NCBI RefSeq assembly: GCF_003334355.1
Contig: NZ_QOWP01000074.1
Length of the DNA stretch: 2,519 nt
Reading direction: 5' to 3' (one strand)
From: Escherichia coli
GTDB lineage: Bacteria > Pseudomonadota > Gammaproteobacteria > Enterobacterales > Enterobacteriaceae
Part shown: piece by piece, positions 1 to 2,425 of the stretch
Layout: the number at the start of each line of letters is the position of its first letter
How positions within the stretch are numbered: position 1 is the stretch's first letter
Program-made: the position numbers and the translations under genes
Notes under the pieces: generated by a model
The model's input: the letters and a program-made list of their open reading frames with translations, nothing else
What the model was told of the DNA's origin: nothing
The model's database searches: none

Positions 1-77
1 AAGGGCGAGCGTAGCGAGTGCCATTTACCCTTGACGACACTCCGGATAAAACAGGCTTGGCAGTGGTGGGGGGTGGC
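1..77. repeat. Terminal redundancy, copy 1: identical to 2443-2519. Indicates a circular molecule of 2,442 bp (wrap-around or assembler k-mer overlap).
   Basis: Base-by-base identity of the first and last 77 nt of the window. Confidence 0.95.
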
Positions 78-101
78 GCGAAGCGACGCCTTCCACCTGC
101 C
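59..101. other. GC-rich nested stem-loop region; alternative or additional oriT or protein-binding candidate.
   Basis: GGCAGTGGTGG (59-69) pairs imperfectly with CCACCTGCC (93-101). An inner GGCG (75-78) / CGCC (87-90) stem encloses the loop CGAAGCGA. Confidence 0.3.
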
Positions 102-149
102 AGACCGCCGTTGATTTTGACCTTCTGGCAGCTTGCTGCCCGAACGATT

Positions 150-192
150 TTGCGTAGCAAAGTCTAGTGAGTACACTATCATCCTGATAGTG
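150..192 (+). promoter_or_regulatory. Candidate mob promoter overlapping a perfect hairpin (CACTATCA-TCC-TGATAGTG, 174-192); candidate oriT/nic region and Mob autoregulation site.
   Basis: The -35-like TTGCGT (150-155) and -10-like TACACT (172-177) are 16 nt apart. The 8-bp perfect inverted repeat with a 3-nt loop lies about 70 bp upstream of the mob start. In MOBV plasmids (pMV158, pBBR1) oriT lies just upstream of mob and overlaps its promoter. No nic site is identified. Confidence 0.3.
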
Positions 193-258
193 GCCCGCCG
201 GAGGTATCGCAATGCGCTCCCCCGCCTGGCTGAATGAATGCCGGAATCAGGGGGGAAC

Positions 259-1227
259 ATGGCGAACTACGCGATAATGCGCTGCAAAAAGCTGACGGGA
301 ATGGGAAGCGTGGCCAGCGCGTTGCAGCACTGCTACCGAGAGCGTGAGACGCCGAACGCTAACGCTGAACGGACACCAGAAAACTACTGCTCTGTGTCCA
401 AATCAACGGATCAGGCAATGGGGCGTGTGCGGGAGCTGCTGCCGGAAAAACGCCGTAAAGATGCGGTACTGGCCGTTGAATACGTTATGACAGCAAGCCC
501 TGAGTGGTGGAAAGAGGCCACACCACGGCAGCAGGCGGAGTTTTTCGCCCGCTCTGAGCAATGGCTGGAGAAGAAATACGGGAAGGATCGTGTTGTGGCG
601 GCGGTGGTTCACCGGGACGAGGCCACCCCGCACCTGTCTGCGTTCGTGGTGCCATTGACGCAGGATGGACGGCTGTCCGCGAAAGAGTTTATTGGCGGGC
701 GGTCAAAGATGCGTGAAGATCAGAGCACCTACGCTGAATCAGTAAAAAAACTGGGTCTTGAGCGCGGCATCGAGGGAAGCCGCGCCACGCATCAGACAGT
801 TCAGCACTACTACGAATCGATAAACCGTGGCACCCGTAGCCAGGTATCGATCTCGCCGGAGGCGCTGGAGCCGCGTGTATTGCGGAAGGGCATTTTCACC
901 AAAGACGTGGAAGATCAGGCAGCCATAGCCAAACGTCTAAGCCACGCAGTGAACGATGGCTTTGCAGGAACCATCGCTATGGCCTCTCAGAGCGCCCAGA
1001 ACGCAAAAAGAGCGCGTGAGCTACAGAAGACTATGGATGCGCAGCAGAAACGCCTACAGAGCGTCACAGAGCCTTTTAAGGGGCTTTCCAGAGAGCAGAT
1101 GACCGAAATCCTGATGATGGCTCAGCGGTTTAAGCAGCAAAACCAGGAAAAGGAAAAACAGCAGCGTATTGAACGTGAAAAACAGCGACAGACGCGATCG
1201 CGTGGCATGGGTGGTATGGAGCGTTAG
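259..1227 (+). CDS. mob: Plasmid mobilisation relaxase, Mob/Pre (MOBV) family, 322 aa from ATG 259. The ORF track's upstream in-frame ATG at 238 would add 7 residues (MPESGGN) and is less likely.
   Basis: N-terminus MANYAIMRCKK...SALQHCYRERE has the same layout as pMV158 MobM (MSYMVARMQK...FKHNER), including the HxxR motif with the conserved His. It also carries RKDAVLAVEYVMT and VVHRDEATPHLSAFVVP (HxDExxPH metal-binding motif), then GLERG and HQTV, all matching MobM from memory. A G-rich Shine-Dalgarno (AGGGGGG, 249-255) lies 3 nt before ATG 259. The long uninterrupted ORF is GC-rich and ends with a Q/E/K/R-rich C-terminal tail. Confidence 0.9.
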   Translation: MANYAIMRCKKLTGMGSVASALQHCYRERETPNANAERTPENYCSVSKSTDQAMGRVRELLPEKRRKDAVLAVEYVMTASPEWWKEATPRQQAEFFARSEQWLEKKYGKDRVVAAVVHRDEATPHLSAFVVPLTQDGRLSAKEFIGGRSKMREDQSTYAESVKKLGLERGIEGSRATHQTVQHYYESINRGTRSQVSISPEALEPRVLRKGIFTKDVEDQAAIAKRLSHAVNDGFAGTIAMASQSAQNAKRARELQKTMDAQQKRLQSVTEPFKGLSREQMTEILMMAQRFKQQNQEKEKQQRIEREKQRQTRSRGMGGMER

Positions 1228-1255
1228 TTTTGATGCGATGCAGGATAGGGCTAAC

Positions 1256-1280
1256 GCCGCAAAGTGACGTCATTTGCGGC
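1256..1280. repeat. Near-perfect 25-bp palindrome GCCGCAAA-G-TGACGTCA-TTTGCGGC between the convergent mob and 76-aa ORF ends.
   Basis: The outer 8-bp arms are exact reverse complements and the central TGACGTCA is itself palindromic. No U-tract follows on either strand, so it is not a canonical intrinsic terminator. It could be a protein-binding site, a structure-dependent transcript end, or a single-strand initiation or resolution signal. Confidence 0.5.
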
Positions 1281-1296
1281 ATTCACCACGAAAAAA

Positions 1297-1527
1297 TTAA
1301 TCATTCAGATGGTAATCATGTTTTTTTAAAATAGAAAAAGCTGCGTTTTTCTGCTTTGGTGACAAACCCTTAGTTGAGTATTTATTACCGCTAGTTCTAC
1401 GATATATGCTGTAAACACTGCTTAAAAAAGTACGCTCCCAAACAGTCAGAACCTCATTCTTTTTTAGTGAATCATGCAGCATTAGCCTGTCTACATTTTT
1501 AAAAAGTTTATCTTCAGCATTCATCAT
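1297..1527 (-). CDS. Hypothetical small basic protein (76 aa) of unknown function, probably co-transcribed with rep.
   Basis: The ATG-ATG start (1527-1522) overlaps the last 14 nt of rep in another frame. A GAAGG Shine-Dalgarno motif lies about 6 nt upstream on the - strand. Composition matches rep, and the stop is TAA at 1297-1299. No family recognised; the protein is Lys/Ser-rich. Confidence 0.4.
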   Translation of the reverse strand: MMNAEDKLFKNVDRLMLHDSLKKNEVLTVWERTFLSSVYSIYRRTSGNKYSTKGLSPKQKNAAFSILKKHDYHLND

Positions 1528-2017
1528 CCATTACCTTCGTCTGCACCGTTCTTCCATTGGTGTCATAACTGATCTTTAACTCAATTTTCTTTCTTCTTTC
1601 GTAAATTGATGGCCAGTCTCCCCGTGCAAAAAGAAAGGGGTTAGCTTCAAGTTCCCCACGCCCTGCCCGGAAGAATATTTGTTTATCTACAAGAGCCGCA
1701 ATTATGTTTTTAAAGGTCTGATATTCAATATGAACCCTGGGCTGTATGGTTTTTTCAAATCTAGTTTTTGATACAGACACAAACCCATCCCATCCAATCA
1801 GCATTGCCAATTGTAAAAGCACATCATTTTGAGATTTTGATAAACCATGAATCATCGCAATGTCTGCAATGTATAGCTTGACGTAGGGAGGTTCGGCTGG
1901 GATGGAAAAGGTCTCGATCTTAGAGTCTTGTTTTACCTCACCGTTTTCATCCATGTATGTATGCCGTTCAAGCCTAGAAATCTTTTTCGTATTCACTCCA
2001 GCCCCACGTTTCGCCAT
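1514..2017 (-). CDS. rep: Putative plasmid replication initiator (small, 167 aa, iteron-associated). Family not securely recognised; possibly a small RepL-like or winged-helix Rep.
   Basis: The ORF sits directly downstream, on its own strand, of a 22-bp iteron array and an inverted-repeat operator that reuses the iteron core. Its central segment (PPYVKLYIADIAMIHGLSKSQNDVLLQLAMLIGWDG) looks like a helix-turn-helix or winged-helix DNA-binding region. AT-rich codon usage matches the surrounding replication module. The function is assigned from context, not homology. Confidence 0.7.
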   Translation of the reverse strand: MAKRGAGVNTKKISRLERHTYMDENGEVKQDSKIETFSIPAEPPYVKLYIADIAMIHGLSKSQNDVLLQLAMLIGWDGFVSVSKTRFEKTIQPRVHIEYQTFKNIIAALVDKQIFFRAGRGELEANPFLFARGDWPSIYERRKKIELKISYDTNGRTVQTKVMDDEC

Positions 2018-2020
2018 GAT

Positions 2021-2044
2021 TTAGTACTCGCATTTAAGTACTAA
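2021..2044. promoter_or_regulatory. Inverted repeat (8-bp arms TTAGTACT / AGTACTAA, 8-nt spacer) reusing the iteron core; candidate Rep autorepression operator.
   Basis: The arms at 2021-2028 and 2037-2044 are exact reverse complements. TTAGTACT is also the core of every iteron. The repeat sits between the rep start codon (2015-2017) and the putative -35, overlapping the putative -10. Confidence 0.6.
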
Positions 2045-2060
2045 AGAGACATACAGTCAA
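2032..2060 (-). promoter_or_regulatory. Candidate sigma70-type promoter for rep.
   Basis: On the - strand there is a -35 TTGACT (2060..2055), a 17-nt spacer and a -10 TTAAAT (2037..2032). This predicts a very short leader before ATG 2017 and only a weak GAG-type Shine-Dalgarno, so the call is tentative. Confidence 0.35.
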
Positions 2061-2074
2061 GTCCTTTGCATCAA

Positions 2075-2170
2075 GTACGATTAGTACTTGAGGTGAGTAC
2101 GATTAGTCCTTGAGGTGAGTACGATTAGTACTTGAGGTGAGTACGATTGGTACTTGAGGTGAGTACGATT
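2075..2170. repeat. Iteron array: four complete 22-bp direct repeats (2075-2096, 2097-2118, 2119-2140, 2141-2162) plus a partial fifth copy (2163-2170). Likely Rep-binding sites of the vegetative origin.
   Basis: The unit GTACGATTAGTACTTGAGGTGA is exactly tandem with 22-bp (two helical turn) periodicity. Copies 1 and 3 are identical; copy 2 has one change (A to C at 2108) and copy 4 one change (A to G at 2149). The array lies immediately upstream of the rep promoter region. Confidence 0.9.
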
Positions 2171-2203
2171 CTTCGCTCTAGCCCTTGGTACAAGCGGGTT
2201 CCC

Positions 2204-2224
2204 ATATCTATATCTATATATTAA
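2204..2224. other. Short AT-rich tract with TATATC-like repeats; candidate DNA unwinding element adjacent to the iterons.
   Basis: ATATCTATATCTATATATTA sits about 35 bp beyond the last iteron, on the side away from rep, the usual position of a DUE. It is only about 20 bp, so the call is weak. Confidence 0.3.
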
Positions 2225-2248
2225 GGGGGAAAATAAGGGCTGAAAAAC

Positions 2249-2282
2249 GGCATTTTTAGACACTGAAAAACTGCCTTTTTTT
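2249..2282 (+). terminator. Terminator-like hairpin with T-tract between the origin region and the ColE1-like segment; possibly bidirectional.
   Basis: GGCATTTTT (2249-2257) pairs with AAAAACTGCC (2266-2275) with one bulged C and an 8-nt loop, followed directly by T7 (2276-2282). The - strand version is followed by GTTTTT. The stem is AT-rich, so stability is modest. Confidence 0.3.
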
Positions 2283-2321
2283 AGCAAGGAGTGTACGCAT
2301 TTCTATGTACGGGGAGTGGAA

Positions 2322-2425
2322 ATTCCGCTTCCTCGCTTTGGCTGTTCGTTCCTCGTCGCGTTGCTCCTGCGGTACGCCTCAGCCAAAGCTGCGGCGAGCG
2401 GTTCCTGCTCTTTCAAAGACGATTT
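2322..2425. other. Segment resembling the region just downstream of the ColE1/pMB1 origin (as in pBR322/pUC backbones); candidate single-strand initiation or primosome assembly (ssi/pas-like) element. Contains a 10-bp inverted repeat (2335-2344 / 2380-2389).
   Basis: TTCCGCTTCCTCGCT (2323-2337) and GCTGCGGCGAGCGGT (2389-2403) are exact matches to strings I recall from the pUC/pBR322 backbone. The following 19 nt match at about 13 positions to ATCAGCTCACTCAAAGGCG. The intervening sequence differs and forms the stem GCTTTGGCTG / CAGCCAAAGC with a loop of about 35 nt. Function is assigned from memory. Confidence 0.45.

Follow-up and report, generated by a model that had tools for sequence, protein, structure and literature searches.

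Small plasmids built from separate replication (REP) and mobilisation (MOB) modules, with a REP module of low GC content, have already been published as the pHW126 family. Its members, pHW126 from Rahnella and pIGRK and pIGMS31 from Klebsiella pneumoniae, are two-module plasmids of Gammaproteobacteria in which related REP modules are joined to different MOB modules. The origin of these plasmids comprises an ssi, a conserved region (CR) of about 20 bp found in all members, four 20-bp repeats with 2-nt spacers upstream of rep, and a winged-helix rep gene. In pIGMS31, autoregulation acts via inverted repeats that resemble the iterons. The plasmid described here was contained in a window of 2,519 nt (the whole stretch of DNA analysed, from Escherichia coli). 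It is likewise a small REP and MOB plasmid of a gammaproteobacterium, has a similar origin layout and shares with pHW126 and pIGMS31 a pMV158-type MobV. Unlike the window, in which the MOB half has 56% GC, pHW126 is AT-rich throughout (31.5% GC), and pHW126-like plasmids are without a counterpart of ORF76, the small gene that overlaps the end of rep in the window.

The plasmid and its base composition

The two ends of the window were found to be identical over 77 nt (Table 1), and the true molecule is therefore a circle of 2,442 bp. The terminal repeat marks the contig as the product of a short-read assembler, which could in principle have joined two unrelated fragments. That the mosaic is an assembly chimera of this kind is extremely improbable, being refuted by more than 30 complete database records of 2,442-2,445 bp that are 99.7-99.9% identical to the window. 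These were sequenced independently, in many countries, from E. coli, Klebsiella, Salmonella, Shigella and Enterobacter. The 2.4-kb plasmid is a common enterobacterial cryptic plasmid, and full-length copies of 2.44-2.46 kb (97.6-99.9% identical), including pKP13a (CP003996), have been described merely as such. Identical complete records came from clinical and farm isolates. No replicon type is assigned to the plasmid in PLSDB/MOB-suite. pKP13a has been entered as ‘ColE1-type’ in a review table, a label contradicted by the REP cassette found in the window plasmid.

GC content was 38.8% in positions 1291-2290 and 56.2% in the other 1,442 nt. Among the features, it was 56.0% in the mob ORF, 41.3% in the rep ORF, 32.9% in ORF76, 39.9% in the iteron and A+T region and 54.6% in the ssi segment, with GC3 values (GC at the third codon position) of 62.8% (mob), 39.9% (rep) and 29.9% (ORF76). 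Segmentation by an exhaustive two-breakpoint maximum-likelihood search on the circle placed change points at 1291 and 2309. The log-likelihood gain was 36.8, compared with 5.4 ± 1.8 (maximum 13.5) in 300 mononucleotide shuffles and 10.6 ± 2.5 (maximum 22.4) in 300 shuffles of 60-nt blocks. A preliminary description had reported a sharp two-part composition, of about 57% and 37% GC, with boundaries near 1290 and 2290. Since the measured GC values agree to a few percentage points and the likelihood change points to within about 20 nt, both the figures and the boundaries were right. Of its two-module scheme, the division into an AT-rich and a GC-rich part is real, but the number of modules is larger than two.

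Backbone and replication region

Table 1. Features of the window, with coordinates in window positions.
Feature	Position	Strand	Basis or remarks
Assembly overlap	1..77	.	Identical to 2443-2519
Presumed MobV-type oriT, inverted repeat CACTATCA/TGATAGTG at 173-193	143..212	+	Conservation, predicted hairpin, place upstream of mob
mobV relaxase gene, 322 aa, alternative ATG at 238	259..1227	+	NCBIfam NF041497; GC 56%, GC3 63%
IncX-type oriT-like site	1234..1284	-	On the minus strand, inverted repeat GCCGCAAA..TTTGCGGC, 8-nt spacer, TATCCTG/C
Left junction, 12 nt from the backbone end (1284) to the ORF76 stop codon	1285..1296	.	Shared break 1284/1285; change point 1291
ORF76, small gene overlapping the end of rep	1297..1527	-	RefSeq annotation; GC 33%
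rep, putative winged-helix initiator, RepL (pSN2-like) superfamily	1514..2017	-	GC 41%, GC3 40%; profile-level homology
Inverted repeat TTAGTACT-N8-AGTACTAA, presumed operator	2021..2044	.	Immediately upstream of rep
Iterons, four 22-bp direct repeats AGTACGATTAGTACTTGAGGTG (2074-2161) and a 9-nt partial fifth	2074..2170	.	Sequence, layout
Origin-proximal region: A+T tract ATATCTATATCTATATATTAA (2204-2224), GGGGG, hairpin (2239-2281)	2171..2290	.	
ssi (single-strand initiation or primosome-assembly-like) hairpin	2318..2410	.	Conserved flanks, self-complementary stem

Mob matched the NCBIfam MobV model NF041497 over residues 3-178 (E 1.7e-47; 162 bits, cut-off 100), and a mobV relaxase is annotated in RefSeq on an identical plasmid. 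Its translation contains HxxR as HCYR and HxDExxPH as HRDEATPH. Measured against the MOBV definitions in the literature on pHW126-type plasmids (motif I HxxR, motif III HxDExxPHxH), Ser takes the place of the closing His in motif III (HRDEATPHLS), as Thr does in the distant relative L022. The protein resembles the MobM/Pre relaxases of the pMV158 family (MOBV) in its NF041497 match, in HxxR and HxDExxPH and in the presumed oriT upstream of the gene. A place upstream of mob is typical for the oriT of this family. Gram-positive MobM/Pre members are about 25-34% identical to the window Mob, which falls in a proteobacterial clade with its nearest outgroups in Pseudomonas (64%) and Aeromonas (49%). 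The region at 143-212, predicted to form a hairpin, was alone conserved (85-91%) in otherwise unrelated 2.5-3-kb plasmids of Pseudomonas, Serratia and Citrobacter, and probably functions as the MobV oriT.

The site following mob was identical at 44 of 51 positions to one that lies, in an IncX3 plasmid, between bis and ddp3. Matches were found in more than 1,500 conjugative plasmids, often at two places per record, and the 37-nt core (1236-1272) was 100% identical in unrelated ColpVC and ColE1-like plasmids. We compare its TATCCTG/C, in which ATCCTG falls at 1241-1246, with YATCCTG/Y, which we take to be the nick-site consensus. An IncX oriT adjoins repX/ddp3 (PMC3402527), and the site resembles this oriT region near the IncX replicon, of which it is a putative orphan copy. 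The palindrome at about 1253-1283 belongs to this site and is not a recombination scar. It was also considered as an intrinsic terminator and rejected, a T-run being absent on both strands.

Translation of rep from the ATG at 2017 gives 167 aa; RefSeq starts it at the GTG at 1996, which gives 160 aa. Searched alone against Pfam, the 167-aa protein (Rep167) had no match, PF05732 being absent even at E≤10. Neither Rep167 nor ORF76 matched an NCBIfam or PHROG family, and ORF76 was also without a Pfam match. PF05732 was, however, matched at E≤0.001 by 6 of the 21 aligned members of the Rep family, and the family profile aligned with the RepL of pSN2 over 114 columns (hhalign probability 89.5%, E 2e-6). 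Matches of Rep in tblastn included RepL-annotated genes in Bacillus, Priestia, Streptococcus and E. coli. Rep can thus be assigned to the RepL superfamily by profile-level, transitive homology and not by a direct Pfam match. RepL/pSN2-like proteins (PF05732) resemble it in their common size of about 160 aa, their central winged helix, and their N-terminal GEV...VK.YI and C-terminal NP..F.RGD blocks, at just 24-36% identity. We know of no iterons or ssi described for pSN2. Homology to the Rep of pHW126 was sought directly and not detected: the family profile compared with its OCR-derived sequence gave an hhalign E of 0.21 (probability 0.3%), and it is the RepL of pSN2 that the profile matches instead. 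ORF76 was 86% identical in the relative L006, and a 72-aa homologue (54% identical) was found directly downstream of rep in L018-L021.

The inverted repeat upstream of rep and the iterons have the core TTAGTACT in common, and AGTACT was observed four times in the module (0.33 expected). An Arsenophonus rep homologue shows the same upstream inverted-repeat arrangement, and the repeat is presumed to be the rep operator. The 22-bp repeats fit the arrangement of four 20-bp iteron-like repeats, 2 nt apart and upstream of rep, that characterises pHW126-like plasmids, and beyond them lies an ssi-like palindrome, as in those plasmids. A block ATCTATwATATTAGGG, common to the origin-proximal region and L022, is a candidate counterpart of the CR, and the origin-proximal region may be where unwinding or nicking takes place. 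Its hairpin (fold z = -3.6) was rejected as a conserved terminator, the stem not being kept in L006, L002 and L004.

The ssi has conserved flanks, GGAAATTCCGCTTCCTCG and TGCGGCGAGCGGTTCCTGCTCTTTCAAA, and a stem that varies among the window, L006 and L001, yet is self-complementary in each. The z-scores of its single-stranded folds were -1.9 (plus strand) and -2.6 (minus strand). Its core was found in hundreds of unrelated plasmids, including those of Sodalis and Pantoea and conjugative plasmids of about 34 kb. The segment earlier called ColE1-like is this ssi or primosome-type hairpin and no replicon. A search of Rfam on both strands at E≤1 matched no family, and ColE1 RNAI and RNAII were not found; a ColE1 replicon is therefore ruled out, and the resemblance to ColE1 is confined to the ssi.

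From this layout we infer the following steps. The cassette (about 1285-2275) encodes a RepL-superfamily winged-helix initiator that presumably binds the four 22-bp iterons, opens the adjoining A+T tract and represses its own promoter via the operator that shares the iteron core. The backbone consists of the MobV relaxase, its presumed oriT, the IncX-type oriT-like site and the ssi hairpin; the ssi would prime the other strand, and MobV would nick its oriT for mobilisation.

Other replication genes in related plasmids

The mob/oriT backbone (1-1284) was 96-99.5% identical in L001, L002, L004 and L005, the closest match being that of L001 (99.5%, with a Mob identical at all amino acids). In these four plasmids a MarR-like (pJW1-type) rep replaces ORF76 and Rep; that of L001 is 39% identical to the pJW1 Rep (E 2e-22) and has its own 21-bp repeats. 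Plasmids of 2.0-2.7 kb thus combine the same backbone (99.5% nucleotide identity) with an unrelated rep of the pJW1 type, which fills the same slot. Homology was lost exactly at 1284/1285 in all five relatives, at the outer edge of the IncX-type oriT-like site, where the REP slot has its left edge. At the right edge, homology to L001 resumed at about 2255-2277, and both breaks lie near the compositional boundaries. Relaxase-mediated recombination exactly at the putative nick was not supported, the common break being about 44 nt from the presumed nick. Similarity between Rep167 and the MarR-like rep was weak and restricted to the winged-helix region (hhalign E 0.0018, probability 15%; BLASTP not significant), and the two are treated here as different cassettes.

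The view of the preliminary description that the plasmid is a recombinational mosaic is borne out, as homology genuinely breaks off at the compositional boundaries and the backbone is found with another rep. The constant pairing of the two modules that it had set against this view did not occur. Besides the exchange of rep on the mob backbone, Rep relatives of 69-75% amino acid identity lay beside quite different genes, namely VirB5/TrbL-like genes with a PF03432 relaxase, a RelB/YafQ pair, or the genes of other small plasmids. At an amino acid identity of at least 90%, Mob was present in 154 PLSDB records and Rep in 61. Two close variants of Rep167 accounted for 79 records, 75 of them typed as mobilizable, and were almost always accompanied by this MobV, so that the independence of this exact pair is shown from the mob side alone.

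Two relatives have composite structures. Both reps are present in L006 together with part of a second mob copy, and a stretch of about 35 nt beside its ORF76 resembles the 3′ end of the MarR-like rep. In L002 the ssi is duplicated, and one copy is fused directly to the iterons. L006 and L002 look like recombination intermediates. The 22-bp iterons were kept in L002 and L004, from which Rep167 is absent. L022, a distant relative (Mob 45-49% and Rep 33% amino acid identity), has the same arrangement of Mob, ssi, iterons and Rep and a GC contrast of 51% vs 38%, which shows that this architecture is old. The divergence of Mob and that of Rep were discordant between the window and L006 or L022.

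We consider it probable that the AT-rich region is an exchangeable replication cassette occupying one slot of a conserved, GC-rich mobilisation backbone. Plasmids resident in one cell would trade cassettes by recombining in the flanks that they share, that is, in the 3′ end of mob with the IncX-oriT site on one side and in the ssi on the other. The arrangement in the window could be ancestral and that of the pJW1-type plasmids derived. A more elaborate and rather improbable variant would have the slot deliberately bounded by a portable IncX-type oriT and ssi, with two routes of transfer (its own MobV, and a borrowed TaxC relaxase acting in trans). These sites, shared with ColpVC, ColE1-like and IncX plasmids, would then be cassette-trading junctions, and the orphan 22-bp iterons of L002 and L004 would be incompatibility decoys against Rep167 plasmids competing for the backbone.

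Origin of the low GC content and comparison with known plasmids

The preliminary description had derived the plasmid from recombination between a Mob/oriT cassette and an AT-rich replicon from a different host background. Recombinational assembly is upheld, but a different host background was not established, Rep relatives being AT-rich everywhere. All those examined had 27-40% GC in any host. The recent import of an AT-rich replicon from a low-GC host, with amelioration still incomplete, would account for a contrast that is largest at GC3 (40% and 30% vs 63%), as a mutational background predicts, and for the window rep being the GC-richest member seen, as partial amelioration predicts. It would also suit the nearest Rep relatives outside Enterobacteriaceae, which occur in the low-GC hosts Arsenophonus (57-58% amino acid identity, gene GC 29-30%, similar AGTACT iterons and operator) and Vibrio splendidus (56%). 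Rozhon et al. put forward the same idea for pHW126. However, the long-diverged relatives of 69-75% identity, from E. coli or gut samples, are equally or more AT-rich (35-40%), and the family is AT-rich even in Pseudomonas (32%); in a Cellvibrionales MAG it has 38% GC between GC-richer flanks of 48%. L022 retains its contrast despite the high divergence of both modules, and a donor with a near-identical cassette was not found. We regard recent import as unlikely.

Alternatively, Mob and Rep may always have been together, and the contrast may reflect constraints on each module, such as the need for an origin that melts easily, regulatory DNA rich in A+T or a mutation bias specific to the plasmid. 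The deep conservation of architecture and contrast in L022, the near-constant linkage of the close Rep167 variants to this MobV, the AT-richness of every Rep family member and the similar two-part GC profile of L024, a Col(MG828) RepL plasmid, all agree with it. Such a history without exchange is nevertheless doubtful, and as a complete account it is contradicted by L001, L002, L004 and L005, since an unrelated rep fills the slot at a sharp common breakpoint, in L001 next to an identical Mob on a 99.5%-identical backbone of 1,284 nt. The apparent intermediates L006 and L002 and the discordant divergence of Mob and Rep also speak against it, and a GC3 of 30-40% in coding DNA is not readily explained by functional constraint. 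With all Rep relatives AT-rich and the contrast kept in L022, the low GC content is a lineage-wide trait of the replicon class and not the mark of a recent import. Under cassette exchange, the contrast would arise because cassette and backbone descend from separate evolutionary lineages, the REP modules of RepL type being AT-rich in every host and this mob lineage standing at a Klebsiella/Enterobacter-like GC content.

The main practical value of these results lies in annotation, given that a common cryptic plasmid is without a replicon type in MOB-suite/PLSDB. Its replicon belongs to the RepL superfamily, is based on iterons and resembles pHW126 in the layout of its origin, in contrast to the ColE1-type label given to a close copy in the review. 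The plasmid is also a clear case, found in nature, of replication cassettes being swapped while the mobilisation backbone stays constant, which can help in typing plasmids and in judging which small plasmids may be incompatible. The mosaic is real but ordinary, small plasmids of this kind having been described before, and it opens no new biological question. According to Garcillan-Barcia et al. 2019 (PMC6856555), the MOBQ4 plasmids of enterobacteria provide a precedent, with one highly similar mobilisation module joined to two unrelated replicons. They differ from the plasmid of the window in their replicons and in the class of the relaxase, which is MOBQ4 there and MOBV here.

Composition and layout of the plasmid

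Positions 1-77 were an exact copy of 2443-2519, a 77-nt overlap left by the assembler, so the contig represents a circle of 2,442 bp. When PLSDB was searched with megablast, over 30 complete plasmids (2,442-2,445 bp) from E. coli, Klebsiella, Salmonella, Shigella and Enterobacter matched at 99.7-99.9% identity, and 427 records gave a match to at least a part of the sequence. The plasmid is not rare but abundant. A 3,164-nt contig (JAEWSH010000127.1) encoding a Rep 100% identical to that of the window was binned in a 'Bacillota bacterium' MAG. It is probably a binning contaminant and no evidence for a Gram-positive host.

GC content was 38.8% in 1291-2290 and 56.2% in the remaining 1,442 nt of the circle, and the contrast peaked at third codon positions. 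An exhaustive two-breakpoint likelihood search over the circle placed the boundaries at 1291 and 2309. The log-likelihood gain was 36.8, compared with a mean of 5.4 (maximum 13.5) in 300 base shuffles and 10.6 (maximum 22.4) in 300 shuffles of 60-nt blocks. The preliminary description, which recognised a GC-rich mob and an AT-rich rep module meeting near 1290 and 2290, was thus essentially right in its GC values and boundaries.

Features of the 2,442-bp circle, with GC content of the whole feature and of third codon positions (GC3)
Feature	Position	Strand	GC (%)	GC3 (%)	Remarks
Presumed MobV oriT	~143-212				upstream of mob; conserved, contains hairpin
mob (MobV relaxase)	259-1227	+	56.0	62.8	NF041497, E 1.7e-47
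IncX-type oriT-like site	1234-1284	minus-strand reading			directly 3' of mob stop
ORF76	1297-1527	-	32.9	29.9	overlaps rep end
rep	1514-2017	-	41.3	39.9	RefSeq start GTG at 1996
Inverted repeat	2021-2044				TTAGTACT-N8-AGTACTAA; has iteron core; adjoins rep start
Four 22-bp direct repeats and partial fifth	2074-2161 (repeats)				
Iteron/A+T region			39.9		
ssi hairpin	2318-2410		54.6		flanks conserved, stem variable

Motif III of the relaxase (residues ~117-126) read HRDEATPHLS, the final His of the canonical HxDExxPHxH being replaced by Ser. In L022, a diverged plasmid, Thr was found at this place. The presumed MobV oriT was the sole stretch in common with some Pseudomonas, Serratia and Citrobacter plasmids. 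The second oriT-like site was identical at 44 of 51 positions to the site lying between bis and ddp3 in IncX3 plasmids, and more than 1,500 conjugative plasmids matched it, often twice per record. IncX plasmids have two oriTs, one of which was placed at the bis-ddp3 position (PMC3402527). The 37-nt core of the window's site (1236-1272) recurred with 100% identity in small plasmids that are otherwise unrelated, of ColpVC (pSYM3-type) and ColE1-like kinds. On the minus strand an inverted repeat was followed, after 8 nt, by TATCCTG/C, an arrangement that fits the IncP/MOBP nick-region consensus. The sequence points to an orphan oriT on which a helper relaxase could act in trans, in which case the plasmid may own two transfer routes.

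The segment at 2318-2410 had been described as ColE1-like. It is instead an ssi element, matching the one described in pHW126-like plasmids, and an Rfam search of the window matched no family, hence no ColE1 RNAI/RNAII. The segment was predicted to fold into a hairpin and was found again in hundreds of unrelated plasmids. Its flanks were strongly conserved between the window and its equivalents in the related plasmids L001, L002, L004 and L006, whereas the stem differed completely between plasmid lineages while remaining self-complementary in each (GCTTTGGCTG/CAGCCAAAGC; GATCGGA/TCCGATC; CTCAT/ATGAG). This compensatory variation is consistent with a structured single-strand element.

Probable exchange of replication modules

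Window positions 1-1284 were 99.5% identical in the 2,028-bp plasmid L001, with a 100% identical Mob protein, and 98.4%, 96% and 95% identical in L002, L004 and L005. In all four, homology ended at 1284/1285, and ORF76 and rep gave way to a MarR-like gene of the winged-helix class, which had two 21-bp palindromic repeats of its own. The MarR-like protein was 39% identical to the pJW1 replication protein (E 2e-22) and had no significant BLASTP similarity to Rep167, the 167-aa rep product of the window. On the right side homology with L001 restarted at ~2255-2277. The homology breaks thus lay ~7 nt (left) and ~30-50 nt (right) from the composition change points. In PLSDB, Mob was present at an amino acid identity of at least 90% in 154 records, compared with 61 for Rep. 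Rep homologues with 69-75% identity neighboured VirB5/TrbL-like genes with a PF03432 relaxase, or a RelB/YafQ pair, and some sat in other ~2.4-kb plasmids. In one contig (ERZ15609975 NODE_6362), positions 1-8495 were a tandem repeat of a ~4.7-kb element with a 71% identical Rep homologue and VirB5-like and TrbL/VirB6-like genes, and thus represents a very small plasmid equipped with a few type IV secretion components.

These alignments show the window plasmid to be a mosaic. The 3,433-bp L006 (CP099049.1, 2865-3433) possessed both reps and a second, partial mob copy of a different variant (91% identical to window 820-1155, against 85% for the main mob). A stretch of ~35 nt resembling the 3' terminus of the MarR-like gene adjoined its ORF76, and L006 looks like a resolved cointegrate. 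L002 had two ssi copies, one joined straight to iterons, and both plasmids look like recombination intermediates. The most economical mechanism would be homologous recombination through common flanks between co-resident plasmids, or cointegrate formation and resolution. Iterons of the 22-bp Rep167 type were also found without Rep167, four copies in L002 (339-448) and two in L004 (1976-2019). Both plasmids replicate with the MarR-like (pJW1-type) rep, and their orphan iterons may be relics or incompatibility decoys.

Source of the low GC content

A recombinational mosaic, as proposed in the preliminary description, was upheld by the backbone occurring with an unrelated rep and by the sharp common break. 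Its further proposal, that the replicon came from a different host background, is not established. The nearest Rep relatives outside Enterobacteriaceae do occur in low-GC hosts (Arsenophonus, 57-58% identity; Vibrio splendidus, 56%), the Arsenophonus genes have a GC of 29-30% and are accompanied by iterons of AGTACT type and an operator like that of the window, and the window rep had the highest GC among members seen. However, all Rep relatives examined were AT-rich (27-40% GC), including long-diverged copies in E. coli or gut samples, a Pseudomonas copy (32%) and one from a Cellvibrionales MAG whose flanking DNA was richer in GC. L022, from K. aerogenes (Mob 45-49%, Rep 33% identical), shared the Mob-oriT-ssi-iterons-Rep architecture of the window and the same contrast (51% versus 38% GC), and a Col(MG828) RepL plasmid had a similar two-part profile. 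Since relatives are AT-rich throughout and these two plasmids repeat the contrast, low GC stably characterises this class of replicons. Either an ancestral reservoir with low GC or some intrinsic bias may lie behind it, a question that Rozhon et al. (2010) also put for pHW126.

Relationship to described replicons

All genes of the AT-rich arc were on the minus strand. The rep start was ambiguous, the longest ORF starting at ATG 2017 (167 aa) and the alternative at GTG 1996 (160 aa); the latter was favoured both by the RefSeq copies and by most homologues, judging by their N-termini. No recognisable domain was found in ORF76 by domain searches. It was kept directly downstream of rep in one sub-lineage, where its homologue was 54% identical. 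Searched alone against Pfam, NCBIfam and PHROG, Rep167 had no match. RepL-annotated genes were nevertheless reached from Rep by tblastn, six of 21 aligned homologues matched PF05732, and the family profile matched pSN2 RepL with a probability of 89.5% (E 2e-6). A single assembly of Candidatus Arsenophonus triatominarum contained 17 loci with RepL-like relatives of Rep at 32-58% identity (L027, L033-L039, L042-L046, L056, L058), a multiplicity unusual for one low-GC host.

The order of elements was that published for the pHW126-like family (ssi, A+T/conserved block, four 20+2-bp repeats, winged-helix rep), whose Rep proteins were earlier reported as distant RepL relatives. Direct comparison with pHW126 Rep, using an OCR-derived sequence, detected no match. 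We therefore regard the replicon as a RepL-superfamily member with a pHW126-like origin layout rather than as an established member of that family.

A review that tabulates small Klebsiella plasmids (PMC6764390) enters the named relative pKP13a (CP003996; 2,459 bp, 97.6% identical) as 'ColE1-type'. This label appears to be wrong, as the window lacks RNAI/RNAII and has a Rep gene and iterons instead. Since PLSDB/MOB-suite assigned no replicon type and the review table gives ColE1, the replicon has gone unrecognised. An abundant plasmid with such a RepL-type iteron replicon is modestly new, as is a REP slot between an IncX-type oriT-like site and ssi. The mosaic itself is a further instance of an already described pattern: REP modules of pHW126-family plasmids have extremely low GC and, where related, are joined to differing MOB modules, and Garcillan-Barcia et al. 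(PMC6856555) describe one MOBQ4 module with two unrelated replicons.
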